DNA of 23,793 nucleotides, taken from positions 64,001 through 87,793 of IMG/VR virus record IMGVR_UViG_3300017971_002799; one strand, 5' to 3'. Source of the DNA: a virus (lineage: Duplodnaviria; Heunggongvirae; Uroviricota; Caudoviricetes). Below are positions 1,868-23,354 of the stretch, piece after piece (position 1 is the first letter of the stretch; every line of letters begins with the position of its first letter). The position numbers and the translations under genes are program-made. The notes under the pieces are model-generated. The model made no database searches, was not told where the DNA came from, and worked only from the letters and a program-made list of their open reading frames with translations.

Positions 1868-1881
1868 AGCAAGTACTCCTA

Positions 1882-2457
1882 CTACATACCCTTAACTAAA
1901 TCTTCCAAATGGCCAATCTCTGCCCCCATACCATTCAACTTTGTAATAAGGTAAAACATGAAAACCAGGATCGCTACTACAATCCCTAAAGTTACAGCCG
2001 GCAACCATTTCTTTACCCTGTTATCTTCAATAGAAGCACCCTCACGAGTACCTCTAACAATCTGTGCTAACCATCTAGGTTCCAAAATAGCGCTCATCTC
2101 AACAGCGGAATCCTTGCTACCCACTAAGTTAACCCAATCAGTGGGCTCATTCAAATCCAACGGCTGAAAATCCTCCCTCTGATACATACTACAAGGAATC
2201 ACCTGCTGAAAAAGCTTCGGCCACCCTAAAGGGAAACCCATAAACCTTATTCTACTAGGTGACACCCCATATTTCTCATCCTCAACTTGAACGTAAGGCC
2301 CCTCAACCTTGTAAAGCTTAAAAGTTATTGACTTATCCTTCTCGAGAAAGAAACAACCCATCTTACCGATTGTCCTCGCCTTTGTAAGAGCGTACACAGC
2401 AACCGGTGCTAGCATAAAGCATGCTAACATGAACAACATTCCACTTGCGGCAACCAT
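1882..2457 (-). CDS. Membrane protein, N- and C-terminal TM helices (191 aa), putative virion/morphogenesis protein
   Basis: ORF track; AGGAGGAGG SD; hydrophobic segments at both ends; lies in the structural operon. Confidence 0.7.
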   Translation of the reverse strand: MVAASGMLFMLACFMLAPVAVYALTKARTIGKMGCFFLEKDKSITFKLYKVEGPYVQVEDEKYGVSPSRIRFMGFPLGWPKLFQQVIPCSMYQREDFQPLDLNEPTDWVNLVGSKDSAVEMSAILEPRWLAQIVRGTREGASIEDNRVKKWLPAVTLGIVVAILVFMFYLITKLNGMGAEIGHLEDLVKGM

Positions 2458-2523
2458 ACAACCTCCTCCTAAATTAAAAACAACCTACTTAAACAATGAA
2501 TAAGTTATATCTCATAATAAACA

Positions 2524-2616
2524 TCACCTCTCTCTTTTATAAAATACAATCCAATTAAGAACAATCCACAACGAAACTAAAAAAGCTATGAAAAGAACAT
2601 CCTCCCAATCAAACAA
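2524..2616 (-). CDS. Putative 30-aa single-TM micro-protein (TTG start)
   Basis: Hand translation (M)FDWEDVLFIAFLVSLWIVLNWIVFYKRER*; fills an operon gap; below ORF-track cutoff. Confidence 0.4.
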   Translation of the reverse strand: MFDWEDVLFIAFLVSLWIVLNWIVFYKRER

Positions 2617-2640
2617 CGAACCGTTGTTAACTCCAAACCC

Positions 2641-2715
2641 TCAATCACCAAAAGTACGAAGCCAATCATCTTGCGGAAGTTTGTGATGTATGAATTCAAT
2701 GGGTTCTTCCTCCAT
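2641..2715 (-). CDS. Putative 24-aa acidic micro-ORF
   Basis: ATG 2 nt after the upstream stop: MEEEPIEFIHHKLPQDDWLRTFGD*. Confidence 0.3.
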   Translation of the reverse strand: MEEEPIEFIHHKLPQDDWLRTFGD

Positions 2716-2717
2716 CG

Positions 2718-3068
2718 TTAACTCACATTCCTACTAAATATTCCAGCAAGAGTCATTATAGCTCCGTATACAAACAATCCTACAAACGGAGCAATAACAA
2801 ACCACCGATAAAGCTCCCAATCTGTACCTTGAATAAATGCAAACTTTAGAGTTAACATATCAAACATACCCTGGAAGAAGCCAGGCACAGATCCTATAAC
2901 CTCCCAGAACCCCCAATCCTGTTCCTCCGAAATGGTTTGCCAGAAAGCTATTTGGTTTAACACACCTCCCTCTCCCTCTCCGAGGTAAGCACCCTCCATT
3001 ACAGCACCCAGCATACTACCGCCAAGCCACACAAAAATCAAGAACGCAACATATTTTGCTGGAAGCAT
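2718..3068 (-). CDS. Small integral membrane virion-type protein (116 aa)
   Basis: ORF track; GGAGGTG SD overlapping the upstream TAG; N- and C-terminal hydrophobic helices. Confidence 0.75.
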   Translation of the reverse strand: MLPAKYVAFLIFVWLGGSMLGAVMEGAYLGEGEGGVLNQIAFWQTISEEQDWGFWEVIGSVPGFFQGMFDMLTLKFAFIQGTDWELYRWFVIAPFVGLFVYGAIMTLAGIFSRNVS

Positions 3069-3080
3069 CTATCTCACCTC

Positions 3081-5132
3081 CTAAGTACTCCTACTAACCC
3101 ATAAGTAAAGACTACCCGCGAGTAGGTAGACTAAGAATATCCAAAGAGGAAGTACTCCAGTACCAGCAGCAGCGAATAACAAGATAGCACAAGCCGCCCC
3201 TCCTAAAAGAGAACTACCGGTCGCAATCACAACACCTACGCCAAATCCGATAGCCGTTGCAACCATTACAAAAGCATACAACTGATTACTTCCCCAACCC
3301 ATATCCTCCGAAGCCTCAGAAACTAACTCATAAACAGGTAAATTCTCCCCTTGTCCCTCTTGATACATTTTATCAGACTGACTAACTGGCCCAAACATAT
3401 CTTCAAACTCGTACTCACCAATACCAGAAGACTTGTAGGAGGTACTTTGTGTAATTGCTCCCTCAACTACCGACAAATTCGAATTCATAGCTCCTAAGAG
3501 ACAAAAAAGATCATTCCCGTTAACAGACTGATCTTCTATCTTAATACTCCCAAAAGTAATATCCTCAGCATAGAAATCCCAATTAGCTACCTTAGTATTA
3601 TAAGCAACCAATGTAAAAAACTTATAATCAGCACCATAACCAGTCCCCGAAGGATTTGTAGCATAAGACCTAACATAGTAAATAGTACCAGTAGACAAAC
3701 CACTTAAGGATCCTGTAAAGGAACCAGTACCCCAACTACCTGCTTCTGCAGTCTTACTACCAGCTACTGTAGGAAATCCAGTAGTATTCCAACAAAAGCC
3801 ACGAACCGTGGGAGCTGATGCACCCAAATCCGTTATGGTACCTCCGGCAACTGCACTCGTTGACGTTACACCCGTTATACTATCCGTTGTTAGTATTGGG
3901 GGTACATAACTTTGAGTTAAATATATAGTGCCAGGTGAATATTTACCCCATAAGTTAGAATAATATGAGCCATCTCCATAAACTATCATTGATGGCATAC
4001 CACCAGCACCTATATCCCCCCCAGAAGCCCATGCAGTTCCTACTTTTGTACCAATACCCACACTTCCATCAGTAGGAATACGCAATAACTGTAAATAAGA
4101 ACCTAAAGCAGAATCAGAAATAATTGACAAAAAATAAGGTTTAGCTACTTCACCAAATCTATAAAGTCTATCTGCTTTGCCATCAGTAATAAATTTATAA
4201 GAATCAACTGATGTAATAGTTCCGCTAGCTACAAGATTAAACGTTTCTATTTGTGCATTACCTGTATCTATTTCATGTGTATAAGCTCCTATTTTTGGAT
4301 AATCAGTTAAGTTAGATACCACAGCAGGTTTTGATACTGAACCAATAGATATAGTAGCATCAGAGAGTATAGTTTTATTTTGTTCAATACTTATAACTCC
4401 TGATGTATTTATATATACAGAAGTGAGCCCTGTATGAGCAGTTCCTGTTGAATTATTCCATGCTGTAACCCATTGATTATGTCCAAAATATTCAGTGTAA
4501 GCTCCATAAGTATTAGTTTTACCTGTACTAGCTACAGAGGTAACAGTTTGTACATCTCCAGCAGAGGTTATTTTTAAAGTTGAATATCTTAAATCTTGAG
4601 ACGCTGAAATGTCAACCCATGATACTCCGTACCAATCGCTAGAATTTTCTATGAAAAATAAATTATTATCTTCCGATTCATGCCACGCAGTTGTGAATCT
4701 ATCCGAATCTAAAAAATTATCGTTTGCTTGTGATATTGCACCACCATCAGAGATATTTAAAGTAAAAACTTTTCCGTAAGTAGCATCATGATCATTAAAA
4801 GCAAATGCCCATATATCACTTGAACCGTTAACAAAAACTCCGGCAGTTAAATCGCAACCATTTACGTTGTACGACCATGAATCAATAGCTGTAAAGGTTC
4901 CTGTATTAGAAACGCTGAAGGTCTTAACATACAGAGGATCATTACAATCACATGACGCCGCTCCGTATACATCCCCATCAATATGAAACACTTGTGGATT
5001 TTTATCATCAGTAGCTATACTACCTAAAGTAATACCCTGATCTGCAGCAAGCACAACTGAAGGTATTAACAAAGGTATAGCTAGAGATAACAGAAAGAAT
5101 AGTACTAAAAATATTCTTACACTATTAAGCAT
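3081..5132 (-). CDS. Secreted spike/adsorption protein: signal peptide, beta-rich domain, FN3-like domain, 3-TM C-terminal anchor (683 aa)
   Basis: Signal peptide ending VVLA; FN3-like module (TTDSITGVTSTSAVAGGTI...RGFCWNT...LSGLSTGTIYYVRSYATNPSGTGYG); three terminal hydrophobic helices. Confidence 0.75.
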   Translation of the reverse strand: MLNSVRIFLVLFFLLSLAIPLLIPSVVLAADQGITLGSIATDDKNPQVFHIDGDVYGAASCDCNDPLYVKTFSVSNTGTFTAIDSWSYNVNGCDLTAGVFVNGSSDIWAFAFNDHDATYGKVFTLNISDGGAISQANDNFLDSDRFTTAWHESEDNNLFFIENSSDWYGVSWVDISASQDLRYSTLKITSAGDVQTVTSVASTGKTNTYGAYTEYFGHNQWVTAWNNSTGTAHTGLTSVYINTSGVISIEQNKTILSDATISIGSVSKPAVVSNLTDYPKIGAYTHEIDTGNAQIETFNLVASGTITSVDSYKFITDGKADRLYRFGEVAKPYFLSIISDSALGSYLQLLRIPTDGSVGIGTKVGTAWASGGDIGAGGMPSMIVYGDGSYYSNLWGKYSPGTIYLTQSYVPPILTTDSITGVTSTSAVAGGTITDLGASAPTVRGFCWNTTGFPTVAGSKTAEAGSWGTGSFTGSLSGLSTGTIYYVRSYATNPSGTGYGADYKFFTLVAYNTKVANWDFYAEDITFGSIKIEDQSVNGNDLFCLLGAMNSNLSVVEGAITQSTSYKSSGIGEYEFEDMFGPVSQSDKMYQEGQGENLPVYELVSEASEDMGWGSNQLYAFVMVATAIGFGVGVVIATGSSLLGGAACAILLFAAAGTGVLPLWIFLVYLLAGSLYLWVSRST

Positions 5133-5143
5133 AACAAAACTCC

Positions 5144-6412
5144 CTAGGGCGTCGATATACTCACATCATTAAACTTACCAGCAACCATTAAAGCATATAC
5201 TGGATCTTCGTTTACAAAACATAAAGCACCAGTAGGAGTTCCAACACTCTGGCCAGCAGCCGCTTGTATAAAGATGTTAGAACCATCAAACCAACCAAGT
5301 ACAGTCTCTTCAGTTCCGGTAGCAGCTGCAACAGCGACAGTTGACTTTGATCCTGGATTCAACACATCAGTGTCTAACCAAAGTCTTGAACAAAGAACAG
5401 GCGAGCCGGATCTCCACTCAAGCAAGATTCCAGCCTGAACATCACTACCACCTGGAAAAGGTATAGCATCGCTATAAGTAGTCATAGCCGACGGAACAGC
5501 TTGTGTTCCTCCCCAAGATATCCCATGCTGAGGTGAATATGCATAAGGGGTAGCAACACCTGTACCAGAATTCCCTCCAAAACCTACTCTATAAGTAACA
5601 TCTACAGCTGCAACCGTTATTGTGCAGCCTTCTGGTAAAGTAGTTTCAAAAGAGCTCCGACCCGAAACAGTTACAGGAGGTGAGCCTGATTGGATTCCTA
5701 TCCAGGTATTATCACTCGAATCAGCAACCAATTGCCAAGGCTCACTACCGCTATTGGAAGTATAAGTTAAACCCTGATCGTAACCATTGTAATTCGGAGT
5801 CCCTACCTCATCTGATGTGGCTGCTCCAGTACCAGTCCATACACTAAACTCATAAGATGGACTAGCCGGGTTCAACCAAAGTTCATAACTGCCCTTCTTA
5901 CTAATAAGAGGCCTACCCCTACTAGGAACATCAAACAACGTCATGGTAGTACGAAGCTCGAAGTCGTCCGTTAAATCAAGCGTAGCAGAATCAGCAGCCC
6001 AAGTATAATCATCTACATCACCTAACCAAGCTTGTGAACGAGTACCTGCAGCTGGGAAACCCATCCAAAGCGTAATCTCTTTATGAGAATTACCATTAAT
6101 ACTAGACAACAAACCAGTCCAAGTAACATTTTGTGTTCCACTTAACTGCATAGCAACATGATCAAGTGTTGTAGAACCGTCCTGCAAATATGTATCGTCT
6201 GCATCCGACAACATCATACCCAAATCGACTAAAGACGCAGGCGAGATCTCAAACTGTACCCTAACGTTAGTTAAATCAGTCGAGCCCTCATTCTCAACCG
6301 TTATAGGCATACTAAAAGCGCAATTAACGTAATTAGCTTTAACTACAGGAATTGAGACAATCGACAATACGAGACAGAAAAATAAAAGAATAGCTAAAAA
6401 CCGCACGCTCAT
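5144..6412 (-). CDS. Secreted adhesin-like protein, DUF2341-like N-terminus plus interrupted LamG/ConA-like domain (422 aa)
   Basis: Signal peptide ending VVKA; MPITVENEGSTDLTNVRVQFEI resembles DUF2341; LDLTDDFEL..LISKKGSYEL, GWFDGSNIFI and GKFNDVSI resemble LamG motifs. Confidence 0.6.
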   Translation of the reverse strand: MSVRFLAILLFFCLVLSIVSIPVVKANYVNCAFSMPITVENEGSTDLTNVRVQFEISPASLVDLGMMLSDADDTYLQDGSTTLDHVAMQLSGTQNVTWTGLLSSINGNSHKEITLWMGFPAAGTRSQAWLGDVDDYTWAADSATLDLTDDFELRTTMTLFDVPSRGRPLISKKGSYELWLNPASPSYEFSVWTGTGAATSDEVGTPNYNGYDQGLTYTSNSGSEPWQLVADSSDNTWIGIQSGSPPVTVSGRSSFETTLPEGCTITVAAVDVTYRVGFGGNSGTGVATPYAYSPQHGISWGGTQAVPSAMTTYSDAIPFPGGSDVQAGILLEWRSGSPVLCSRLWLDTDVLNPGSKSTVAVAAATGTEETVLGWFDGSNIFIQAAAGQSVGTPTGALCFVNEDPVYALMVAGKFNDVSISTP

Positions 6413-6416
6413 AGCC

Positions 6417-6578
6417 TTACCCCCAAGAACTCTTCATGTTCCCCTTCATTCGAGTTAAATTCTTCTGCAAGTTCTTGCCGGCCTTCTTCCTCTTAGCAGA
6501 ACTGCTAAAGAAATCGAGACTACCTAATACTCCCCCAGTTGATTTTCTGCTCCCCGATTTTTTCCTTCTCTTTTTCAC
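6417..6578 (-). CDS. 53-aa highly basic micro-protein (GTG start; absent from ORF track)
   Basis: AGGAGAG SD then (M)KKRRKKSGSRKSTGGVLGSLDFFSSSAKRKKAGKNLQKNLTRMKGNMKSSWG*; fills the gap before the 422-aa gene; overlaps the upstream ORF by 59 nt. Confidence 0.55.
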   Translation of the reverse strand: MKKRRKKSGSRKSTGGVLGSLDFFSSSAKRKKAGKNLQKNLTRMKGNMKSSWG

Positions 6579-6723
6579 TCAAATCTCTCCTAAAAGTCAT
6601 TCGAGTTCTTCCAAAACCAAGTAATCCCTCACTTGTGTGATCGTGTCGAACTCGTGCCCCTTTATGATCGTGAGAAAGAAACTCCCAATCATCTCCAAGG
6701 CTCTTACAATGCCAGTGAGGCAT
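6520..6723 (-). CDS. His-rich small hypothetical protein (67 aa)
   Basis: ATG directly after the upstream TAA, with GAGG SD; HxH and HDH motifs. Confidence 0.5.
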   Translation of the reverse strand: MPHWHCKSLGDDWEFLSHDHKGARVRHDHTSEGLLGFGRTRMTFRRDLSEKEKEKIGEQKINWGSIR

Positions 6724-8454
6724 TTAGGATAGCCTCGCTAATATGAACGTTATACCAAAGAGTAGAATTACAATGAATACCACCGCAAAGATGACATACA
6801 GAGGTATCATTCCTAAATAAGAACCTATAAGCAAAAACGGAATCGAGAGAGCTATAGCAGCCTGCACATTTCCTGTAGCGACAAAGATCCTGCCTGCTAA
6901 TAGCAGATATACAATAAAAGCACCAATACCAGCAACAATGGTACCTGGAACACCTATCCACTCACCGAAACCATTCATCGCCTGAGTCAAACGATTACCC
7001 ATATTGTCTTTCAAACCACGCGCGTAAGCGCCTGTCCAATCCGGTACTGTGTAAACAATCTCTACGAAAACTCTATCAATACGAACTTGACTAACTCCAT
7101 CACCAGAATAAACCTCAATACCGACTTGCAAATCTTCTATATCAGAGGTACGCCAAGTAGAATCTTCACTAGGCCTTGCCATCTTCTCCGCCGCGTGTAG
7201 TTTCTGATTCTCTCCAGCAGCCATTCGCCACTCACCAACAGTTTCTAGACCAGACAAACTAATAAAAGGCCTACCGTAAACTTCTCCATCATCACTACTC
7301 TGTAAATTGAAATGAACGGTAACACTCTTTAGACTTGAATCACTAACAAAACTAAAAGAGTCTAAGTGATAGAGGTCCGCTTGTAAGGAAGTGCTAGATG
7401 TATATACATAAGTATCACTATAGTCCAAACTAAACCTATCAGTCGCTTGTACCGCCGCCGACAGTGTACCTGATAATATAAACTCTCCAGTAGTACCATT
7501 AAAACTAGAAACATACTCAGATTCATTTTGTGGGGGCCCTCCATCTGCTGTCTGTGTTATCGTAAGAGTTGCACTATTCCAAAAATTATCTGCTTGATTG
7601 AAGGTAGCATCAACAACAGCTGTAGGCGAGCCGCTATCAGCTACCCCTCGAGAATTAGGCATGTTTCGTGTCCAATTCACCTTATCGTAGTGTGAGTTAA
7701 TATTTGGGAACTGTGATGCTATAGCAGTCTCAGAACCACTAGCATTCGGATAAAGATAAGACACTTTAGTTATATCAGGAACTTCTGCTACAGATAAAGA
7801 AGACTCGAAAGACTCAGGAGTCAACTGATCCATACCAGGTATAGCAGTCTTAAAAGCCAAAGAACCTGCGGTGTTTAATCTACCACTATCCGTTAAAAGA
7901 TCAATACTCCATACATCTTCAATTACGCCCGCCCTTATAAGCATCAGCTCACCAAGGAGAGATCTATTATAATCCATCGGGTTATCATAAACGTCAGCGT
8001 TAGCATCAACAGCATAGGTATCCTGATTACAATTAGCGGCAGGACATTCAACTAGAGGAGCGAAATAAGCAGGATTGCCGGACACCTTTATTGTATAATT
8101 ATCCAACTCATCCCAGTCAAGACCTTTCGTAGATATTTGTGAGGGTGTTAAATACACAGAAATGATATTATAATCATAATAGTTTAGAGGATTGGTGGCA
8201 ACAAGATTGTCATTTTCGTCATAAATAACCACCAAGTAAGTATCTTCCGCAGACTCTGTAGGTGTAACAGTATAATCTATATCATACTCAACATAAAACA
8301 ACCAATCACCATTCACCCATAAATTATTCCAAACAAAAACCTTCTCAATCGAGACGTCGTTTGGATTAGATATAGCAAAAGCCGACCCCGATAACACCAG
8401 AGTCAGTACTAAAACAGTTAGTATCGAAACGTTTAAAATCTTAGCTTTCCACAT
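6724..8454 (-). CDS. Secreted spike/adaptor protein with signal peptide and 3-TM C-terminal anchor (576 aa)
   Basis: Signal peptide ending SAFA; large beta-rich ectodomain; three C-terminal TM helices similar to those of the 683-aa protein. Confidence 0.75.
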   Translation of the reverse strand: MWKAKILNVSILTVLVLTLVLSGSAFAISNPNDVSIEKVFVWNNLWVNGDWLFYVEYDIDYTVTPTESAEDTYLVVIYDENDNLVATNPLNYYDYNIISVYLTPSQISTKGLDWDELDNYTIKVSGNPAYFAPLVECPAANCNQDTYAVDANADVYDNPMDYNRSLLGELMLIRAGVIEDVWSIDLLTDSGRLNTAGSLAFKTAIPGMDQLTPESFESSLSVAEVPDITKVSYLYPNASGSETAIASQFPNINSHYDKVNWTRNMPNSRGVADSGSPTAVVDATFNQADNFWNSATLTITQTADGGPPQNESEYVSSFNGTTGEFILSGTLSAAVQATDRFSLDYSDTYVYTSSTSLQADLYHLDSFSFVSDSSLKSVTVHFNLQSSDDGEVYGRPFISLSGLETVGEWRMAAGENQKLHAAEKMARPSEDSTWRTSDIEDLQVGIEVYSGDGVSQVRIDRVFVEIVYTVPDWTGAYARGLKDNMGNRLTQAMNGFGEWIGVPGTIVAGIGAFIVYLLLAGRIFVATGNVQAAIALSIPFLLIGSYLGMIPLYVIFAVVFIVILLFGITFILARLS

Positions 8455-8776
8455 ACTCCCCAGGGACCTCCAAAAGCTTGCGACGCACGAATCCTAACTT
8501 CTGCAACTTTTCTAAAGCAACACTTACTCTTCCCGATGGTAACTCTGTCGCCTCCGGCAAATCAGCCTCTTGATAGCCTTCTTCATACAACTTCTCCCAC
8601 ACAACATGCATATCAGGATCCCAATACCCTGTATGCTCATAAGTTTCCAACTGACTTACAGTATCAGCTGGTAACTCCTGTCTAACAAGACTGCTCCTAA
8701 CTAGCTTAGAAACAAAACCAGGATCCACCTTCTGGAAACGTTCAGATATTCTTACAACATCCTTCATCTCTGCCAC
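8441..8776 (-). CDS. Winged-helix DNA-binding protein (111 aa; GTG start re-assigned from 8785)
   Basis: C-terminal LPEATELPSGRVSVALEKLQKLGFVRR fits a wHTH recognition helix and wing. Confidence 0.55.
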   Translation of the reverse strand: MAEMKDVVRISERFQKVDPGFVSKLVRSSLVRQELPADTVSQLETYEHTGYWDPDMHVVWEKLYEEGYQEADLPEATELPSGRVSVALEKLQKLGFVRRKLLEVPGEYVES

Positions 8777-8788
8777 TGTAAACAACCT

Positions 8789-9115
8789 CTAATCTTCTTC
8801 GTCCACTTCTTCTCGAGTACTCTCAACTCTTTCTCGCACGGCGTCTCGATACTGCTCACCTGTAATATCCCCTAACAACTGTGCTTTTACAATTCCTGGA
8901 ACAAACTCCCACTCCTCTGGTAAATCCTTTTTCTTAACTTCTGTTAACTGCCAATCCGGAAACCAAACGAGAGTACCCTTCTCTAAAAGAGCTACTTGAT
9001 AACTCTCGTCCGTAGACTCTGGCTTCATATCGACTTCCATAACAACACCCAAAGAACTTTTATGCTTCCCACTATCAACCTTAACTGTGTCGCCAGGAAC
9101 TAAAGCAACGGCCAT
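8789..9115 (-). CDS. KOW/SH3-like motif protein (108 aa; ATG start re-assigned from 9121)
   Basis: LVPGDTVKVDSGKHKSSLGVVMEVD matches the KOW pattern. Confidence 0.55.
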   Translation of the reverse strand: MAVALVPGDTVKVDSGKHKSSLGVVMEVDMKPESTDESYQVALLEKGTLVWFPDWQLTEVKKKDLPEEWEFVPGIVKAQLLGDITGEQYRDAVRERVESTREEVDEED

Positions 9116-9117
9116 CT

Positions 9118-9324
9118 TCAAACCCTCTCTATCAAACCAAACTCTTCCAAACGCAGAACCTCTTTATAAGAAGTTTCCGGTAGAAAACCCGCCTCCCTAA
9201 CGGAGTCAAGCAAGGCGTAATCATAAGGAACATTTTTAAACCAGCTATAAGGCCCAAACCTCTCGCTATAAGAATCTAAACGCTCCTCACCATCAGGAGT
9301 TAGGATAACTTCAATAACAGGCAC
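9118..9324 (-). CDS. Hypothetical protein (68 aa, GTG start)
   Basis: ORF track; preceded by the GAGGTTGT-N5 start motif. Confidence 0.65.
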   Translation of the reverse strand: MPVIEVILTPDGEERLDSYSERFGPYSWFKNVPYDYALLDSVREAGFLPETSYKEVLRLEEFGLIERV

Positions 9325-9645
9325 CTAAAACAACCTCTTCTTCTTTTTAAAAAGTCTCGTCTGCGCTAAAGGTCCCCCAACATACAAATCCAAGTTACGA
9401 ATCGACTCATCAGGGTTTCTTATACCCTTCGGCACTGACTTCTTCAGAACTGAGGTAACAGCATCCATCTGCCTCTGGCGTCTCTCACGTCCACCCTCGC
9501 GCTGGACAGCCTCCAATCTTTTATTAAGAGATTCTATCTCAGCCCTCAATTCTGACGTACTAGCAGAGACGTCATCAGCGGTAGCATACTTGCTAACAGG
9601 AAGCTCTTGCTTCTTACCCTTAATAAGATCTCTAAGCTTTCCCAT
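9325..9645 (-). CDS. Coiled-coil protein with basic C-terminus (106 aa; start re-assigned to MGKLRDL)
   Basis: Heptads SELRAEIESLNKRLEAVQRE; ends KKKKRLF. Confidence 0.6.
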   Translation of the reverse strand: MGKLRDLIKGKKQELPVSKYATADDVSASTSELRAEIESLNKRLEAVQREGGRERRQRQMDAVTSVLKKSVPKGIRNPDESIRNLDLYVGGPLAQTRLFKKKKRLF

Positions 9646-9865
9646 GTTTAAAATTCTTCCCCCAAGCAGCATTATTCTGCTGAGCCATTTGCGCTCTGAT
9701 CTCTCTAGCAGCTACTTTACGATCCCAAGAATCGGTTTCAAAAGTATCACCATTTCCTCCGTAATACTTCTCTAAATGTCGATCGGCCCTATCTTGAGAA
9801 CGGAAAGGAGTATCAACCATAAAACCTCTGCCAGTGTTTGTATAACGTATGGCCCACCAAGGCAT
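9632..9865 (-). CDS. Hypothetical protein (77 aa)
   Basis: TAATG stop/start overlap with the upstream gene. Confidence 0.65.
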   Translation of the reverse strand: MPWWAIRYTNTGRGFMVDTPFRSQDRADRHLEKYYGGNGDTFETDSWDRKVAAREIRAQMAQQNNAAWGKNFKHGKA

Positions 9866-10098
9866 TACCTTCCCTCTCTAAGCATGTTGCGCACGAAGAA
9901 GCCTTCAGACTCCGAACTTAAAGGACCTACAGCTCTGGCATCTCCTCTCTCCTGCCAAGCCTCCAAGGGACCAACTATCCCCTCGTAACAACTGTAACAA
10001 GTAACATCTTGGACTTCTCCGCCTTCATCTGTAGGTGATCCAGGCAAAGGCATAAACGGTCCTTCTTGCCTACCACAAAATGCACATTCTCGGTTCAT
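9865..10098 (-). CDS. CxxC-CxxC zinc-finger protein (77 aa; ATG start re-assigned from 10107)
   Basis: CAFC ... CYSC. Confidence 0.65.
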   Translation of the reverse strand: MNRECAFCGRQEGPFMPLPGSPTDEGGEVQDVTCYSCYEGIVGPLEAWQERGDARAVGPLSSESEGFFVRNMLREGR

Positions 10099-10110
10099 TT
10101 CAAACAACCT

Positions 10111-13100
10111 CTATATCTCAATTAGAGTCTCGGCAGTTTCAGTAGGAATCCTCTTCTTCTTTCCCTTCTTCTTCTTTTTCCTAGACACCTTAGTTCTGCC
10201 TAACTCTTTCGCACCATAGGGAACAGCAATACCACCACCCAAAATCCGCTCAATTGTTCTACCAGTCCAAGGATCTCTAAAGTGGGCAGCAAGTGTAGGA
10301 ACTCTCCAATAACCACCCGCCATCCTCCGGGTAAATCGTCCACCAGCAACGCCTCCACCGGCTCCCATTATTCCAGCGCCAAGAGGTAAGAATGGCAGGA
10401 ATGGTGGAGTCGTCAAAGGAATTTGTGGAGTACTAACAGGAGCGAAACCTGGGCCACTAATTGGCGGCCTCGGGTAGTAATCAGGGTAATCAACAGTTAC
10501 CTGCGGAATCGTCTCTGGTATCTCCGTAGGTATCGTCTCCGGAATAAACGTCGGGACCTCTATAGGTGTAACTTCCGTAATCCCAGGCACTACATCCACG
10601 GGAGCAATCTCTGGAATCCCAGGCTCAGCAATTGTAGGAACTCCTGGCTCTACAGGAGGCTCGAATACTGGTACAGGTCTTACAGTAGGCGCTATATCAA
10701 CCCTCGCGGCAGCCGGCTCATAAGCCCTTGTAGGCATTACATCGTAGACGGTAGGAACCTCAGTTGTAGCTACTGTCGGCCTCGTAGTCACCCTAATCAT
10801 TGTAGGCGCAACCCTTGCAGTGGGGATGCTGGGAGCTGTTACGGTCGCAGGAACTCTTGCAGTTACACCGGGTCTAGCAACATATCGCCGCGCCTGCTCA
10901 GGAGTCAATCGCCCCGCCTCTACCATTCTATCTAACATACTTAACTCAGCGGGACTTATCTCAGAAGACACCCCCACCATTTCAAACGGGGCAGCAGCAA
11001 CGACTCCTGGGAAAGTGGTAATAGCTGCTAGTCCGGCCCTCTGCAACGCGAGACTGGAAACGCCGGGTAAACCAGGCACGCTAGGAAGGCCTATACCCCT
11101 TACTTGTCCGGGAAGACCCGCAAGCGTCTGTCTCCAGCTGGCGAACCTACTAGGAACACTAGGAGCAACCTCAACAGGACGAACTATAGCAGGTCTTTCA
11201 GCAACAGGAGATACATAACCAGTTCTAGCATAAGAAGGAGCACCCCAAACCTTGGGATCGTAACGATACCCAGGATAATAAATCTGAGGAGACGGTATAT
11301 CCATTCCAGCTACAACCTGACCCGCAGCTCTTGTAAGAGGAGCTCCAGTAGGTGCTTTAGGTGTTAATCCAAACGGGTCAACATCAATAGCAGGACCTGC
11401 AGGTCTAAACTGTCCTGGATACTCATACGCAACCTGAGCCATCGGCCTTGAAGGAGTTATAGGTGCTCCCCTAGGAGCTAGCGTAACAGGAGCAGCCTCC
11501 CCTGGGACTATATAAACAGGCTCACCAACACCCGCACCTGGTACGGTTGCTCTCATGCCTGAAGGCTCTAAAGGTACATCAACACCAGGTCGAGTAGGTT
11601 CTGCAAGCGTATATCTAACCCTACCAGTACCAGTAGGAGTTACTTCATAAGGAGCCATTCCTGTAACTCTTTCAGAAACAGTCCGAAGAGGATCAATTCC
11701 TCTAGGCCGCATCATAACAGTAGCGGGCTGACCCCCTAGAGCAGCTTTCTCCCAAGAAGGTCTAAACGGTGCATATGTAGCAAGACCAACATCAGTTAAC
11801 CTTTGCTTAGCCCACTGAGCAGGAACTCTCACCGGAGTCGTTACCCTTTGCACCGTGGGTGTTTGATAAAACTTCCCAATTTGCGCTCTCGTAGTTGGGG
11901 CTGTCTGTATCGCAGTCGACGCAGCAGCTCCCTTAATACCTTCTCTCGCCAAAGCAGCCGCGTGAGGATCATAAACACCCCTACCTGTAGCTATTTTCCA
12001 AGGAGCTTTCACAGTCTCAACAAAACCAGTAGGTGTAAACGGGTACTTGAAAGAAGCCCCAAACTCTCTAACAGCTCCCGTGACAGTTCCCTTTAAAGGT
12101 TGTGCACCAGTAACAACTCTCATACCTTGTCTAGCCATCTGAATAGGAAATAAAGGTACATCTCTGACTAATCCGTAACCAGAATAAGCCACCCTACCCA
12201 CAGGGCTCCTCACTAAAGCTCCAGCTACTCCTGTAGTCCTAGCACCCATAGCAATCCCAGGAGAAACAACTCCCCTAGCAACTGCACCGGCAACAGGTAT
12301 AACAAGAAGAATATCTCCTGCTATAGATAAATACGTCCAACCGCTTTTTAAACCTCTCTCCTTAATTGTCAAAGCAGTACCGTAAACGGGAATCATATAC
12401 TTCCCAATATCCCAAACACCACTACCCTTAAAGTAATCTTCTTTATGTTCCTCAAAGGGCTTATACTCCAATCGCTCCCTGTTTTCAGTTGCAATAGTAT
12501 AAGACTCATAAGCCTCTTCCGCTCTAGGATCACCAGGCTCTCCAAACAAACCCTCTGAGTAAGCCTCGTCTATAACATCCTGTTGTCCCTTATTAACAGC
12601 ATCTACGATGAACATGTGATTTCTGTACTCATTCATCATAGAATCCCAGTCATAAGCCTCCGTGCGAGCCTCGCCGCCAGTCATTATTTCAGTAAAACGA
12701 GCACCGGACTGTTCCCAGAAATCAGACTTCTCACCTTCCTCTAAAGCCCTATAGTAATCAGGATCTCTCACCGGCTCTGTCTCGACCCACTCTTCCAAAC
12801 CCATAAACTCTGGCTCGCCTTCTCGAATGACTCCTCCAGGAAGATTAACACCGTCAGCAACAGACGAACCGAAAAGCTTTCGCGCATCTCCTAGAGAGAT
12901 CAAACCCTCTTGATAAGCCCCCCTCACATCACCAAGAGACACACCACCAAGATTACCCTCGGCATCTTGAGTACCATAACCGGCATCAACCATATCTTGA
13001 AGAACATCAGTTAACCTGTAAGCATCAGCAGCAGTAGCGGCAGCAGTCCTCCGAACAACACTCTCAACAGGTTCTATACCTTGCTCAGCGAACATCTGAA

Positions 13101-15405
13101 AACCCCAACCCGGCTGACCGAAAGTTAACTGTTTTAGATAATCACGACTCACCCACTCCCCAGTAGCTGGTGACTGAATCATAACTTCGTCTTTAGCCCT
13201 ATCGATGTAAGAATACTCCTCAGGCTTGACTGTAATATCAAAAGACTGATCCCAACCCTCAACCTGATTCCTAATAAACTCATCACGACTAACAGCCATC
13301 GTCTGGCCTTCAAGAGCAACTTGAGCGGCAACCTGATCCCAATTACGTCCAGCATCCTCAGCTATATCAGACAACTGAGATTCAACTCTATCTTGGGCTT
13401 CGTCTAAGGATATACCCAAAGCAGTAGCTAACTCCTCAGCACCGTAAGCAACCTCTCTTCTAGTAGGAAGTAAAGCGGAAATCTGATCTCTATCAAGACC
13501 AGTAACATCCAATCTTTGAGTCTCGCCGCCCCACTCAAACTCAACAAACTGACCCGCTTGCTCCACCTTAGTCGTCATCTTAGGAACAGCCACCCAAGTA
13601 GTTCCTTCGGCAGGAACCTCTGCGGGGGCATGCATACCCGAGACAGCTACAAGCTCTGTCCTTGCAGGAATAGCATCCATCTCACCTGCAGCTATTAATC
13701 TCTCCTCCTCCAAAGCTCCTCTAATAACCTCAGCCTGACCCAAAGTAGGAAGAATACCTCTTTGAGCCTCTATAATATCCGCTTGACTGTAAGGAATAGC
13801 CGCATCTTCGTATCCAGGTGTAGGTCTATAAGGAACAACCCAACCTGTTACACCTCTATCCCGAGAACCAAAGAAAGTAGGAGTAGCCGTTAACTCACTA
13901 ACAGGTGTTAAAGAAGGACCAGTTGGAGTAGCCCATGTACCCTTAGGACCCCAACCGCCAGTAAGAGGAGAAACAGGAGCAACAGGAGAAACCTCGCCCT
14001 CAAGCACAGGAATTACGTTAGTAGCCTGACTAGCTCTTATCTTAGCCCCGACAGGAGTTGTAACCCAATCACCCTCTATTTCATAACCGGGAGGAAGATA
14101 AATATCCTCTCCTTTGTAACCAACTACCTGACCACCTACACGAAAACCCTCCGGGAGATCGACTTCAGCACCTTCAACGGGAACTTCCATAGGTACTCTT
14201 AAAAGCATACCAAGAGGAGTACCGCCAATCTCAACCGTTGTAGTAGATTTAGGAAGAGGCGTCGGAGGTCCAACTCTACCAGCAGCTACATCCAACTCAT
14301 AATCGTAAAAAGCAGGGGTTACTTGTGTAAGAGTCGGAGGAGTTACAGCCGCTCCCAGTCTAGTACCAACAGGAATCACAGAAGGAGTAGGCGTAACAAG
14401 TGGTGGTCTAGTGACTACAGGAGCAACAGGTATCTCTCTTCCCTCGATAACAGCCTGCATAGCTCTCTCATCACCAGAAGCCACCAACCCAGCCCATTCT
14501 CTATGAGTAACACCCGCAGGTTTGTGATAAGTAACACCACTCTCAGCTGTAAACTTGTCAGGAACAACAGCTGCAGCTAACTGCTCCGCTCTGGCTTCAA
14601 CAGCAGCCACCTCTATAGACTCTCTTTCACGTATCTCAGCTAAAGCGGTAGCGTCAGTAACCTTTTGTTGGGGAGTAAGAACTACTCCGGCTTGTATAGC
14701 TGCAACAGTAGAAGATACTACACCAGGATCAGGAGTAATACCAGCAGCTACCTGCTGAGCAGCCTGTGTCTGCCTTTTGGACATCTCAGCAACGGCAGGA
14801 GCAAACTCTGGCTTACTAGTATCCGCCTCCCTAATAGTTTCCCACAACTCAACATTAGAAGCAGTCTCTAACCCCGTCTCCCTTACAGGAGAAGGTTGAA
14901 CTACAACTGCGGGTGCAGCATCTACAGGCAGTATACCTCCAGGCATGGCAATACCGCCACCAATTAACTGCTGCTGACTCTCATACTGCTCCATAGCAGC
15001 AACATACGACTGCGGCACCATAGTCCCGTACTTGTTAGAGTACGTAAGTCGCGTTCCAGGCGTCCTATAGGCCTCCTCTAGATACTGAGTCAATACTGGG
15101 GCTTGAACATCTGCAACGCCTCTAACAGGAGCAACCGTTGTGCCTGAGATAACACCTGCAGTAACATACTCTTGAGTAAGCCTCTGTTTCTCAGCCTCTG
15201 TCTCAGCGGCAGCGACCTTACTAAAAGCGGCCCACTGCTCCGGAGTGCCCCCATGTTGCTCTGCAGCACTAATCGCCTGAGCCGCAACAGTTGGAGTAAC
15301 ACCCGTAGCCGCAGCTTGAGTTGCTACCTGTTGTACAGCTTGAGCTGAAGTTCCCAAACCAGCAGCCTGAGCCGCAGCAACTGCTTGTTCTAATGCCGTA
15401 GTCAT
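10111..15405 (-). CDS. Giant low-complexity protein (1764 aa), putative internal virion / DNA-delivery protein
   Basis: Long ORF; Ala/Gln-rich N-terminus, Pro/Thr/Val-rich tracts, central hydrophobic segment YLSIAGDILLVIPVAGAVARGVV, Gly-rich stretch and SRKKKKKGKKKR tail. Function is inferred. Confidence 0.7.
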   Translation of the reverse strand: MTTALEQAVAAAQAAGLGTSAQAVQQVATQAAATGVTPTVAAQAISAAEQHGGTPEQWAAFSKVAAAETEAEKQRLTQEYVTAGVISGTTVAPVRGVADVQAPVLTQYLEEAYRTPGTRLTYSNKYGTMVPQSYVAAMEQYESQQQLIGGGIAMPGGILPVDAAPAVVVQPSPVRETGLETASNVELWETIREADTSKPEFAPAVAEMSKRQTQAAQQVAAGITPDPGVVSSTVAAIQAGVVLTPQQKVTDATALAEIRERESIEVAAVEARAEQLAAAVVPDKFTAESGVTYHKPAGVTHREWAGLVASGDERAMQAVIEGREIPVAPVVTRPPLVTPTPSVIPVGTRLGAAVTPPTLTQVTPAFYDYELDVAAGRVGPPTPLPKSTTTVEIGGTPLGMLLRVPMEVPVEGAEVDLPEGFRVGGQVVGYKGEDIYLPPGYEIEGDWVTTPVGAKIRASQATNVIPVLEGEVSPVAPVSPLTGGWGPKGTWATPTGPSLTPVSELTATPTFFGSRDRGVTGWVVPYRPTPGYEDAAIPYSQADIIEAQRGILPTLGQAEVIRGALEEERLIAAGEMDAIPARTELVAVSGMHAPAEVPAEGTTWVAVPKMTTKVEQAGQFVEFEWGGETQRLDVTGLDRDQISALLPTRREVAYGAEELATALGISLDEAQDRVESQLSDIAEDAGRNWDQVAAQVALEGQTMAVSRDEFIRNQVEGWDQSFDITVKPEEYSYIDRAKDEVMIQSPATGEWVSRDYLKQLTFGQPGWGFQMFAEQGIEPVESVVRRTAAATAADAYRLTDVLQDMVDAGYGTQDAEGNLGGVSLGDVRGAYQEGLISLGDARKLFGSSVADGVNLPGGVIREGEPEFMGLEEWVETEPVRDPDYYRALEEGEKSDFWEQSGARFTEIMTGGEARTEAYDWDSMMNEYRNHMFIVDAVNKGQQDVIDEAYSEGLFGEPGDPRAEEAYESYTIATENRERLEYKPFEEHKEDYFKGSGVWDIGKYMIPVYGTALTIKERGLKSGWTYLSIAGDILLVIPVAGAVARGVVSPGIAMGARTTGVAGALVRSPVGRVAYSGYGLVRDVPLFPIQMARQGMRVVTGAQPLKGTVTGAVREFGASFKYPFTPTGFVETVKAPWKIATGRGVYDPHAAALAREGIKGAAASTAIQTAPTTRAQIGKFYQTPTVQRVTTPVRVPAQWAKQRLTDVGLATYAPFRPSWEKAALGGQPATVMMRPRGIDPLRTVSERVTGMAPYEVTPTGTGRVRYTLAEPTRPGVDVPLEPSGMRATVPGAGVGEPVYIVPGEAAPVTLAPRGAPITPSRPMAQVAYEYPGQFRPAGPAIDVDPFGLTPKAPTGAPLTRAAGQVVAGMDIPSPQIYYPGYRYDPKVWGAPSYARTGYVSPVAERPAIVRPVEVAPSVPSRFASWRQTLAGLPGQVRGIGLPSVPGLPGVSSLALQRAGLAAITTFPGVVAAAPFEMVGVSSEISPAELSMLDRMVEAGRLTPEQARRYVARPGVTARVPATVTAPSIPTARVAPTMIRVTTRPTVATTEVPTVYDVMPTRAYEPAAARVDIAPTVRPVPVFEPPVEPGVPTIAEPGIPEIAPVDVVPGITEVTPIEVPTFIPETIPTEIPETIPQVTVDYPDYYPRPPISGPGFAPVSTPQIPLTTPPFLPFLPLGAGIMGAGGGVAGGRFTRRMAGGYWRVPTLAAHFRDPWTGRTIERILGGGIAVPYGAKELGRTKVSRKKKKKGKKKRIPTETAETLIEI

Positions 15406-15417
15406 ATCCGACAACCT

Positions 15418-15882
15418 CTACACAAACTTAAAGGTGCGACCTTGTATCAAAATCCCACCTTTCTTTCTCTTCTTATCCGAAGTAAACCCATTTCCTTTAG
15501 GAGGGGTTATTGTAGAAGGGACACCTGAAGCGACAGCGCTAGACTTAACACCCTTCCTTCCCATACTTCCTTTTATATGTCCAGCCATAGCCTCAGCAAC
15601 ACCTGAAGGACCAACTATTTTCTTCTCCCTACCAGTTCTTGCACCAGTCGGACCTACCCTCCTCTGAGTAACCTGCTTAACCTTTGGAGCCTTCGGTTTC
15701 GCTCCCAATCCAGGCTTGCCAGGCGCTTTATGTTTTCGTTGAAAACCTGCACCCTGCCTTTTAGAAGAACGCGCGTCAAGTTCCTCAACCTGACCAGCAG
15801 TAAGCGTTGCACCTGTAGAAGCTGCAAGCATTCTCTTCATCTGCACGTCACTCATTCCAGTTCTCGGATCTAATCCAGCCAT
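15418..15882 (-). CDS. Lys/Arg-rich basic protein, candidate nucleoprotein (154 aa; start re-assigned from 16032)
   Basis: GGGGTTGT-N5-ATG follows the upstream stop and removes the overlap; very K/R/G-rich. Confidence 0.65.
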   Translation of the reverse strand: MAGLDPRTGMSDVQMKRMLAASTGATLTAGQVEELDARSSKRQGAGFQRKHKAPGKPGLGAKPKAPKVKQVTQRRVGPTGARTGREKKIVGPSGVAEAMAGHIKGSMGRKGVKSSAVASGVPSTITPPKGNGFTSDKKRKKGGILIQGRTFKFV

Positions 15883-15895
15883 TACAGACAACCCC

Positions 15896-16201
15896 TTATC
15901 CCATTCTATCGACAGCTTGTTGTATTCTGCCGTAATTGTTCTCAACAAAAGTTCTAGACCAGATAGCAGTACGAGGCACTCCCTTCGGCCAACCAGCCTC
16001 AATAAATGCAGCATTCGCGGCGTTGTAAACATTTTCCCCCATAAATACCCGCTGCGCTATATCGTCAACCATATCTTGTTCAGGGTCAGGAGCATCAGGC
16101 ACATCATCCCAATAAGGATTATACTTTCCCTCGGCCTTTAGTATATCCTTCTCCCGGCGAGTTAACGCCCCACTCTTTCCAAAGTCGCGAATATCTGACA
16201 T
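15896..16201 (-). CDS. Hypothetical protein (101 aa; ATG start re-assigned from 16210)
   Basis: GAGGTTGT-N5-ATG start motif; abuts neighbours. Confidence 0.65.
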   Translation of the reverse strand: MSDIRDFGKSGALTRREKDILKAEGKYNPYWDDVPDAPDPEQDMVDDIAQRVFMGENVYNAANAAFIEAGWPKGVPRTAIWSRTFVENNYGRIQQAVDRMG

Positions 16202-16213
16202 GATAAACAACCT

Positions 16214-16729
16214 CTAAAAAATTTGCCTCGCCCTTATACGTAATCCTGCAGGCTTCTGTCTTTGAGGCCTCCTCATTCCAAGTCTCATTTGAGGCAGAGC
16301 CGCTCTCCCCAGAGCAGGCATAGCAATTAATCCAGGAGAAGCTGCGGGTTGGGGAATTCTAGTCCTCCGGGCAGTTGGTTTTATGGACATAAAAGGATCG
16401 CTAGCTTGAGGCGTTACCATTTCCGAAGAAACAGCCGGAGTGCCGTGCAACATGAACTGCTGACTAGCTCTAGTTTCGGGCTCTTGGCCAGAAGCAATCA
16501 TCGCAGCCTTCTGCTCGCGTAACCTTTCAAAGGCATCTGAAGGATCTGAGGGGTCCAATCCTGTAGCGGGAAACTCTTGCTGAGGAGGTTCAGGAGGCTC
16601 ATATCCCGTAGCAGGCAACAGTTCTTGCAAGCTGGGCTTTGTTGTCCCAGGCCCGAAGACAAATCTTGGAGGACCTTCCATATCACTCGACATAGAAGCT
16701 ATATTAGGTAACACACTCGGTACAGGCAT
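16214..16729 (-). CDS. Pro-rich, probably disordered protein with Arg-rich tail (171 aa)
   Basis: GGGGGT SD 8 nt before ATG; first gene after an AT-rich intergenic region. Confidence 0.65.
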   Translation of the reverse strand: MPVPSVLPNIASMSSDMEGPPRFVFGPGTTKPSLQELLPATGYEPPEPPQQEFPATGLDPSDPSDAFERLREQKAAMIASGQEPETRASQQFMLHGTPAVSSEMVTPQASDPFMSIKPTARRTRIPQPAASPGLIAMPALGRAALPQMRLGMRRPQRQKPAGLRIRARQIF

Positions 16730-16741
16730 TTAACCTAACCC

Positions 16742-16753
16742 CCTTATATAAGG
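16742..16753. promoter_or_regulatory. Perfect 12-bp palindrome CCTTATATAAGG, possible operator upstream of the late operon
   Basis: Seen directly; sits in an AT-rich promoter-like gap between the terminator and the next gene. Confidence 0.35.
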
Positions 16754-16830
16754 AAGGATCTTTTATATATAATATACAAGAATATTGAACAGACCTACAA
16801 TTCGATACTAAATCTTTTCGGGGCCATATA

Positions 16831-16869
16831 GTAGAAGAGGCGCCGAGCTAAATTCAGCCCAAGCGCCCC
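16831..16869 (-). terminator. GC-rich hairpin after the capsid gene (terminator or RNA-stabilising stem)
   Basis: Minus strand GGGGCGC-TT-GGGCTGA...TTAGCTC-G-GCGCCTC then TTCTAC; the U-tract is weak. Confidence 0.55.
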
Positions 16870-16898
16870 TACCACTAATATATTTGAGGAACCAACCT

Positions 16899-17096
16899 CT
16901 AGCCTTGGCCGCCAATCCATGCGACGGCACCCAGGAGTATCACGGCTACGAAGACATACGGCAGTACGTCAACGAGCGCGGACAGTCCACTGGGGGTGTC
17001 CGTCGGCAGTGCATCGATGGTGGTCAAGATGGTGGGAATCAAGCTGACACCTACAACGATAGATATCATGATTCCGATCAGCACCGCTACCAACAT
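16899..17096 (-). CDS. Putative major capsid protein, spindle-shaped-virus (SSV1 VP1/His1-like) two-helix type (65 aa; ATG start re-assigned from 17105)
   Basis: MLVAVLIGIMISIVVGVSLIPTILTTI-DALPTDTPSG-LSALVDVLPYVFVAVILLGAVAW: two hydrophobic helices with G-x-x-L-h-P-x-I and L-h-x-h-h-P signatures around a polar turn; own GGAGG SD and terminator, as expected for a highly expressed gene. Confidence 0.7.
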   Translation of the reverse strand: MLVAVLIGIMISIVVGVSLIPTILTTIDALPTDTPSGLSALVDVLPYVFVAVILLGAVAWIGGQG

Positions 17097-17256
17097 TCGA
17101 GACAACCTCCGGTAAGATTTAGAAAAACGTTAGTCTTTCGGTACATTATAATTATCCCCAATATATCTGGACATTTCCATAGTCATATTATAAAGGACCA
17201 CTAAAAAATCACAGCTAACCTATACAACCAGTCAATGAGCCTTAATACGATGACTA

Positions 17257-22731: not shown

Positions 22732-23354
22732 AAGAAGAACTACCCGGAAGCACAGAACACACAAGAGGAACCACCATGCGAACAACCATAAGAACAAGAA
22801 TCAACTACGGAAAACTCGGGCACTTAACTTGTTACAGTGGGCCACCCAACTCAGGACTCACCCTTGCATCCGTTATACATGTCTGCAAACTGCACAAGCT
22901 CGACCCAAGTAGACAAGTTATATCTAACACTCACCTAACAAAAATTCCCTACAAACCCTTTTCAATCTTCGAACTAGATCAATACACCCACAGTATTATC
23001 TTTATAGACTACATCCACTCCCTTGTAGATTCTCGAACAAGCGAACAAACCATTTCTCAAGCTATAACGAAATTCATGCAAGCCCTAAGAGCTTGGGACT
23101 GTATTGTCGTAATGAACGCCCCTAACCATGTACTAATACACGAACCCATACGAAGACAAATAACTGATATCTTTAGACCTACCTACTACCAAAACAAACG
23201 AGGCACCCCCTACCTAAAACTCTTTAAACTCCCGAACCCCCTCAAAGAAAACTACCAGATAGCTTATAAACCAATTCGTGTACGCAAATACTTCAAACAC
23301 TCCAACACTCGAGAAGTCTTTAATCCTTTTATATCTAAATGGCAACATGTATGA
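22728..23354 (+). CDS. Zot/pI-like P-loop ATPase homolog with degenerate Walker A and B (208 aa)
   Basis: GPPNSGLT, VISNTHL, IIFIDYIH..DSR, FMQALR and IRRQ follow the Zot-family motif order, but Walker A K is L and Walker B E is Y. Confidence 0.7.
   Translation: MKEELPGSTEHTRGTTMRTTIRTRINYGKLGHLTCYSGPPNSGLTLASVIHVCKLHKLDPSRQVISNTHLTKIPYKPFSIFELDQYTHSIIFIDYIHSLVDSRTSEQTISQAITKFMQALRAWDCIVVMNAPNHVLIHEPIRRQITDIFRPTYYQNKRGTPYLKLFKLPNPLKENYQIAYKPIRVRKYFKHSNTREVFNPFISKWQHV

Follow-up and report, generated by a model that had tools for sequence, protein, structure and literature searches.

The window analyzed here, the right-hand 23.8 kb (23,793 nucleotides [nt] in full, positions 64,001 to 87,793) of the 87,793-bp virus record IMGVR_UViG_3300017971_002799, which was judged to be linear and about 96% complete, carries a short repeated sequence, the octamer GRGGTTGT (R, A or G), just upstream of start codons in a large minus-strand gene block. 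The octamer is a real, conserved and functional translation-initiation element, and its mechanism is partly explained. We tentatively favor, with slightly less than even confidence, a reading in which it is the ribosome-binding site itself, composed of a Shine-Dalgarno (SD) core and a conserved 3′ extension that pairs with the tail of the 16S rRNA. Three parts of this reading are inferred: pairing of the extension with the rRNA, a canonical tail in the host and late expression of the block. The block and the octamer copies in the window are as follows.

2..17096, minus strand: block of tightly packed genes using the octamer; putatively late (virion) genes
17102..17109, minus strand: copy 1, CG-GAGGTTGT, serving the ATG at 17096 of the 65-aa first gene; lies in the operon leader with no upstream open reading frame (ORF)
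16207..16214, minus strand: copy 2, sharing its first G with the upstream TAG; ATG at 16201, 101-aa gene
15888..15895, minus strand: copy 3, the GGGG variant, abutting the upstream TAA; ATG at 15882, 154-aa gene
15411..15418, minus strand: copy 4, overlapping the upstream TAG (first G in common); ATG at 15405, 1764-aa protein
10104..10111, minus strand: copy 5, overlapping the TAG of the 1764-aa gene (first G in common); ATG at 10098, 77-aa gene
9330..9337, minus strand: copy 6, within the 3′ end of the upstream gene; GTG at 9324 directly after the TAG of that gene
8782..8789, minus strand: copy 7, overlapping the upstream TAG (first G in common); GTG at 8776, 111-aa gene
2458..2465, minus strand: copy 8, at spacing 0, abutting the ATG at 2457 (191-aa gene), behind a longer SD run, AGGAGGAGG

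A preliminary description of this stretch had reported eight minus-strand copies, seven of them exactly 5 nt before an ATG or GTG, which often overlap or abut the upstream stop codon. All eight were found, every one on the minus strand (1.94 matches expected over both strands), and none of 100 dinucleotide shuffles reached this number. The gap is exactly 5 nt to ATG for the copies with starts at 17096, 16201, 15882, 15405 and 10098, and to GTG for those with starts at 9324 and 8776, with only the eighth copy abutting its start codon. Contact with the upstream gene is frequent: four copies have a G in common with a TAG, one abuts a TAA, one lies inside a gene end and one is in the leader.

The coding strand is rich in G+T, which would favor a compositional artefact or a chance origin of the octamer, and the preliminary description had named this skew as what might undo the enrichment. 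The enrichment holds when the skew is modeled: the coding strand of the late block spans 34.9 kb (30% T and 26% G), and 10 copies of GAGGTTGT were counted there against 1.2–1.9 expected under Markov models of orders 0–3 (order 3 alone: 1.9 expected; Poisson p ~3e-5). Following the 288 GAGG on this strand, TTGT is the most frequent of all 4-mers. Together with the extreme concentration of the octamer at start codons and its recurrence in relatives with diverged coding sequences, the shuffles and Markov models refute chance, whose probability we regard as negligible.

For at least five genes that a naive ORF caller begins at TTG, the octamer also settles the start codon, a correction that the preliminary description had proposed. 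The TTG starts at 8785, 10107, 15414, 16210 and 17105 in the mechanical ORF list are the TTG within the octamer, whereas independent database gene calls for the same phage place the start at the ATG or GTG 5 nt past it. At 8 of the 17 spacing-5 sites across the lineage an in-frame stop codon separates the octamer TTG from the start, therefore TTG cannot be the start at those eight sites.

The whole 87.8-kb genome contains 16 exact copies, of which 11 are 0–5 nt upstream of a start codon and on its coding strand, at spacings of 5 nt (six copies), 3 nt (one), 2 nt (two) and 0 nt (two). Nine of these 11 belong to the minus-strand virion block and two serve plus-strand genes (contig 25746 and 26090), so the term late-specific, used in the preliminary description, describes a strong bias and not a rule. 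Likewise, the fixed spacing it described applies to 17 of the 24 octamer sites in the lineage, but the octamer also stands before starts at 0–3 nt.

These distributions bear on the idea that the octamer works at the DNA level, as a late promoter, as a transcription-factor site or as a boundary at which gene modules recombine, and only happens to overlap the ribosome-binding site. The sites do fall at gene boundaries, a −10-like element at a 5-nt spacing could yield near-leaderless transcripts, and whole start cassettes are reused in this phage. However, the sites are strictly on the coding strand and their core is an SD, spacings of 0–3 nt would place the transcription start within the gene, no conserved upstream half-site is present, and seven promoters in one packed operon are implausible. 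The flanks are not conserved, contrary to recombination boundaries. The promoter version was rejected based on strand, spacing and flanks, and we consider a DNA-level explanation as a whole very improbable.

To place the octamer in an evolutionary context, relatives were found by an exhaustive profile search with the 576-aa protein of the block (6724–8454, minus strand); a word-indexed protein search gave only 1–2 per query, and four back-translated scans of viral contigs (single proteins, one alignment) recovered no relatives. Nothing similar to this virus was found by megablast and tblastn in the phage record collection. The group has not been described before and is a deep uncultured lineage from several environments. 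Four relatives from at least three studies carry the octamer, even though they are only 33–54% identical in the 576-aa protein. Copies lie just before starts in 7/8 cases in L005, 3/3 in L009, 3/3 in L011 and 4/6 in L162, which confirms the conservation in related elements. L162 (~33% identity, another sample) has the variants GGAGGTTAT and GGAGGTTAG besides the octamer. Two further contigs, L008 and L010, have no octamer in nine junctions, which is not a significant absence given the motif frequency elsewhere.

The closest comparison is with L005, a syntenic 17.5-kb contig that encodes the one distant homologue (35% identity) of the 1764-aa protein and has the octamer with 5-nt spacing before seven late genes, including the orthologues of the 65-aa gene and of the very long gene. 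The orthologous 65-aa gene shows the arrangement of copy 1 in both L005 and L011, and the 2208-aa L005 orthologue of the 1764-aa gene shows a motif and spacing identical to copy 4. At the L005 junction orthologous to copy 5, GAGGTAGT takes the place of the octamer. The orthologues of the copy-8 gene (~190 aa) have the octamer at spacing 1 (L009), 3 (L011) and 1 (L162), and GGAGGTTTT is used in L163. The octamer thus occupies partly different junctions in the window and in L005, with one orthologous junction reading TTGT in one and TAGT in the other; this turnover implies that the octamer is kept by selection and not merely inherited site by site.

Several properties of the sites fit a ribosome-binding site. 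GAGG or GGGG is present in every copy (GGAGG in 11/24), and all 24 sites are on the coding strand with a core-to-start distance of 4–9 nt, which is 9 nt at 17 sites and 4–7 nt at the others; the other SDs of the same operons lie 4–11 nt from the start, with a mode of 8–9. Strong SDs are found on nearly all genes of this phage. Among the 77 SD-bearing late starts of five genomes, T is found at position 5 in 53, a purine at position 7 in 54 and T at position 8 in 45, and 17 of 23 octamer sites have a pyrimidine at position 9 (p=0.008). With the canonical 16S tail taken as GAUCACCUCC, positions 5, 7, 8 and 9 are able to pair with A1534, U1532, A1531 and G1530, whereas position 6 cannot pair with C1533. 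The modeled duplex with this tail is −10.4 kcal/mol for the octamer, compared to −6.5 for GAGG, −8.1 for GAGGT and −11.6 for the early AGGAGGA type.

Based on this pairing, we propose that the octamer would act in the mRNA as a GAGG core (GGAGG where no stop codon intrudes) followed by TTGT and usually then by a pyrimidine. Within the late operon, where genes are closely packed, the TAG or TAA that ends the upstream gene would sit where the 5′ half of a full AGGAGG would be, leaving only the four-base core, and the TTGT extension would compensate by prolonging the helix with the 3′ tail of the 16S rRNA. The predicted pairs are T5-A1534, G7-U1532 (wobble), T8-A1531 and Y9-G1530, with a single unpaired position, T6 opposite C1533. 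The outcome would be a medium-strength site in a fixed register, with the core 9 nt from the start codon, that could be used by a ribosome that has just terminated or by a free 30S subunit. The first cistron, which has no translated gene upstream, bears the octamer in three genomes; the octamer would therefore be independent of an upstream terminating ribosome, and the translation-coupling role suggested in the preliminary description can be at best a part of its function.

Some observations weigh against the octamer being an ordinary extended SD. T6 has no pairing with C1533, and yet in the 77 late starts the fully complementary extensions TGAT/TGAG follow the GRGG core only three times, compared to 24 times for TTGT and four for the next extension; the departure from the canonical extended SD noted earlier is therefore genuine, and the full complement to GAUCA (GGAGGTGAT type) is not what these sites carry. 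Where TT precedes position 7, G outnumbers A there by about 26 to 5, even though A would be the better partner for U1532. The TTGT sites are also more tightly placed than other SDs (17/24 vs. 11/53 at 9 nt, p=7e-5). Finally, most non-late genes (28/47) have an A after GGAGG, which is unable to pair with A1534, showing that pairing of the extension is not general. These points fit a more specific reader, which could be a dedicated factor or a 16S tail of variant sequence, no less well. Avoidance of restriction sites as a cause of the rarity of the canonical extension was ruled out, given that GATC and GGTGA are not depleted.

The T6 and G7 preferences, unexplained by the canonical tail, are explained by a rare natural one. 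Under this alternative, the host 16S rRNA ends in ...GGA(C/U)AACCUCC and not in ...GGAUCACCUCC, GGAGGTTGT(C) is a perfect extended SD of 9–11 bp, and the most demanding genes of the phage have adapted to it. The variant tail accounts for T6, its CA form also for the preference for G7, and several octamer sites run on with a matching C or CC. On the variant tail the octamer is modeled at −16.1 kcal/mol, equal to a canonical extended SD on the canonical tail. True bacterial 16S genes with an exactly complementary tail are found in nature: in metagenome contigs, GGACAACCUCCUU (GGACAACCTCCTT), the exact complement of AAGGAGGTTGTCC, ends the 16S at three loci (L138, L140 and L157), GGAUAACC (GGATAACCTCCTT) at seven further loci and GGAUGACC at thirteen, within a search pattern that covered the GTGCGG variant of helix 45, as opposed to CTGCGG. 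In a comparison of the rRNA with a few named loci, L157 and L141 (both A1533 types) were placed near Bacteroidota and the others were not placed. The sole genome match with a CA ‘tail’, L054, was discarded because it is not rRNA.

The surroundings of these tails, however, differ from this phage. Genes beside the CA-tail operons (L140 and L157) lack SDs and the G1533 group (UG) is also SD-poor, suggesting that the variant tails have drifted in lineages that do not depend on SDs, unlike this SD-rich phage. In the survey of Amin et al. 2018 (PMC6107228), no such tail appears among variants with more than 40 occurrences, and no case was found of a variant SD matched by a variant anti-SD. In Bacillota_A, an SD-using phylum sampled with 401 genomes, the 150 tails that were listed are all canonical. 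Moreover, an A1533 tail would be mismatched by TAGT/TAAT, which ranks second among the extensions of this phage, the extension is not used by non-late genes, and strong SDs on most genes together with TATAAT-like promoter matches make a poor fit to an SD-blind host. A variant anti-SD is thus possible in principle but has no support yet, and we regard it as unlikely for this host.

Tails varying at positions 1532–1533 (AU, UU, UG, CA and UA) occur in many lineages (metagenome loci L133–L160 and genome loci L013–L132). Among the matches listed from reference genomes, GAAUACC is found in Sphingobacteriia and Chitinophagia, and GAUUACC in SAR11, Rickettsiales, Saccharibacteria and Fibrobacter. Candidate phyla radiation (CPR) bacteria with the GAUUACC tail have few reliable SD-bearing genes, too few for an analysis of SD/tail co-variation. 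The lack of SDs beside the CA and UG types, whose flanking genes could be read, suggests that positions 1532–1533 drift once SD use is lost. Not only are 16S tails that differ at these positions not rare in metagenomes, but they belong to SD-poor organisms where this can be checked, which is useful for host prediction from phage ribosome-binding sites. The look-alikes of the ribonucleotide reductase of this phage, examined for a host clue, are scattered over many phyla.

Alternatively, TTGT at a fixed 5 nt may be bound by a dedicated factor acting in trans, be it a phage protein, a host protein or a small RNA, that switches on or holds back late translation. TTGT is more invariant than rRNA pairing needs, its spacing is unusually exact and its distribution is biased by gene class. 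The start-associated sequences of Cluster K mycobacteriophages, whose conserved 3′ positions are also unable to pair with 16S rRNA, provide a precedent (PMC3203893). No candidate reader emerged, however. The KOW protein put forward in the preliminary description is the following.

8789..9115, minus strand: 108-aa ORF with a marginal KOW match (9020–9097; 23.3 bits, cut-off 22.3)

It has no orthologue in L005 or in the other octamer-keeping relatives, which speaks against it, and no S21 gene was found. In addition, spacings of 0–3 nt are odd for an operator that is read relative to the start codon.

An RNA reader was considered based on the site of the first gene, which has a 15-nt identical copy antisense to plus-strand transcription (L002:5063-5077; contig 23063–23077, minus strand, with local transcription in the opposite direction). 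The copy lies within a ~500-nt stretch (L002:4860-5400), without a supported ORF or Rfam family, that is 5′ of tRNA-Met and tRNA-like genes; Rfam found only a tRNA and a tRNA-like gene in this region. A plus-strand RNA from this stretch would hold a perfect antisense including ACAACCUCC, which is only a lead. The copy is one of about ten repeats of at least 15 nt that involve start regions, and the fold of the region is not significant (z=−1.4). A CAACCUC-GAAA-GGGGUUG hairpin adjoins the copy. The gene that anchors this region has a single relative, on a contig that stops short of the corresponding stretch. Considering both sides, we find a dedicated factor unlikely.

In a broader formulation, the octamer would be one half of a natural non-canonical SD/anti-SD pair (tail ACAACCUCC, in an SD-using host), or of a phage-specific initiation code in which a phage-made reader of TTGT, possibly the antisense-copy RNA, times late translation. 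We consider this somewhat unlikely. If the variant pair were true, it would be the first matched variant SD/anti-SD pair, which surveys have sought without success. Exactly one position, T6 vs. C1533, divides an ordinary extended SD from a site that something else reads. The octamer is tractable in this respect: it is short, conserved in a deep uncultured lineage, and open to a position-by-position comparison of its extension with the 16S tail.

Compared to known systems, the closest analogue is the start-associated sequence (SAS) of Cluster K mycobacteriophages, a 13-bp motif (GGGATAGGAGCCC) located 3–7 bp from the start of non-structural genes, half of whose copies carry a 17-bp inverted-repeat extension (ESAS) and for which no reader is known (Pope et al. 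2011; PMC3203893). Both elements are short, asymmetric and in one orientation a few nt before start codons, combine an SD core with conserved 3′ positions for which a canonical 16S tail would offer no partner, and may have the upstream stop codon inside the motif. Both also serve one gene class and are kept across diverged relatives, on non-orthologous genes, with no reader known. In the octamer these SAS-type properties are seen as an asymmetric motif right before many starts and as a bias to one gene class (9/11) with junction turnover. The octamer differs from SAS in its length (8–9 nt), its sequence, its use mainly in the virion block, the lack of flanking inverted repeats or other conserved flanks, and its occurrence in an unrelated uncultured virus lineage; furthermore, most of its extension positions are able to pair with rRNA. 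It is therefore SAS-like, not a member of the Cluster K family.

The extended SDs of Bacillota are similar to the octamer in having a core and a 3′ extension at the mRNA positions of GGAGGTGAT, with a core-to-start distance of ~7–9 nt (B. subtilis, anti-SD UCACCUCCU, PMC10783764; S. aureus, PMC13009471). Two of the four extension positions differ (TTGT vs. TGAT), one being a true mismatch to C1533 and the other a wobble, and the canonical extended form is rare in the operons of this lineage, unlike the Bacillota type. Some prokaryotes are enriched in ‘shifted’ SDs (e.g., GAGGT and GAGGTG; Amin et al. 2018; PMC6107228), which share the register moved 3′-ward, including a T that pairs with A1534, but which, unlike the octamer, are complementary to the canonical tail throughout. 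A literature search with the motif string matched only microRNA papers. What is new here is the association with late genes, how deeply the octamer is conserved and how nearly it matches the rRNA.

Protein readers of such sites exist: RegA of phage T4 reads sites overlapping ribosome-binding sites and represses early messages. Its operators and the octamer are alike in being a short U/G-rich element by the start codon in a set of phage mRNAs, which allows control by gene class; unlike the RegA operators, the octamer has no known reader, and no sequence or protein relation to the T4 system was found. Phage start-associated motifs have been known since 2011, and to our knowledge no reader or mechanism has been found for them.

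The use of extensions varies along the genome. A second dialect, GAGGTAGT / GAGGTAAT / GAGGTAGA, is dominant at contig 46.3–59 kb (minus strand; L003 and L004), whereas TTGT is dominant from 58 kb on, so the extension is module-specific inside one genome. Two non-late genes are preceded by an exact 22-nt cassette, AAAAGTATAGGAGGAACCAACA (L001:12650-12671 and L001:14597-14618, contig minus strand), and shorter, partial copies precede several more genes, including those that start at contig 618 and 1039. In this cassette the extension past GGAGG has no complementarity to the 16S tail, and the cassette may be an early-class promoter or leader.

The 87.8-kb genome encodes a family-A DNA polymerase, a family-B polymerase of the protein-primed type and a class II ribonucleotide reductase. 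The large minus-strand block has almost no Pfam or PHROG matches, the single PHROG match being a tail-fibre connector on a 1003-aa protein. This match, together with the very long protein, the tiny hydrophobic first gene and the tight packing, leads us to infer that the block comprises late (virion) genes. The following two features lie at its upstream end.

17145..17179, minus strand: candidate sigma-70-like promoter for the operon, ~45 nt 5′ of the first ATG (TGGAAA, 17 nt, GATAAT, then TATAAT), by consensus match only
16892..16899, minus strand: degenerate octamer copy, GAGGTTGG, that opens a 170-nt gap, overlaps the TAG of the 65-aa gene and is not followed by a start codon, read directly from the sequence

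Taken as a whole, the promoter scan was not above shuffles. The product of the first gene (65 aa, hydrophobic; 16899–17096, minus strand) has its C-terminal 45 residues 100% identical in L005 (L005:3223-3357) and 87% identical in L011 (L011:4999-5133), whereas neighboring proteins are only 35–57% identical, implying that it is very strongly constrained. The 170-nt non-coding gap 3′ of this gene (16729–16899) is odd for an operon that is otherwise tightly packed.

Just 5′ of the very long protein, the 101-aa ORF (16201–15896, minus strand) is overlapped for ~137 nt by an upstream extension of the next frame (ORF 16032–15418). This overlapping pair, within 15418–16210 (minus strand), resembles the two-frame chaperone pair upstream of tape-measure genes; unlike that pair, the frame offset is +1 and not −1, and the second gene is equipped with a motif and an ATG of its own. 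Farther downstream lies the gene of the 576-aa protein, a member of a large family that lacks annotation (1140 profile matches, 90 of them below 1e-30). Most members are ~320 aa and align to its N-terminal 220 and C-terminal 100 residues; because most relatives match only these two ends, the middle of the 576-aa protein looks like an insertion.

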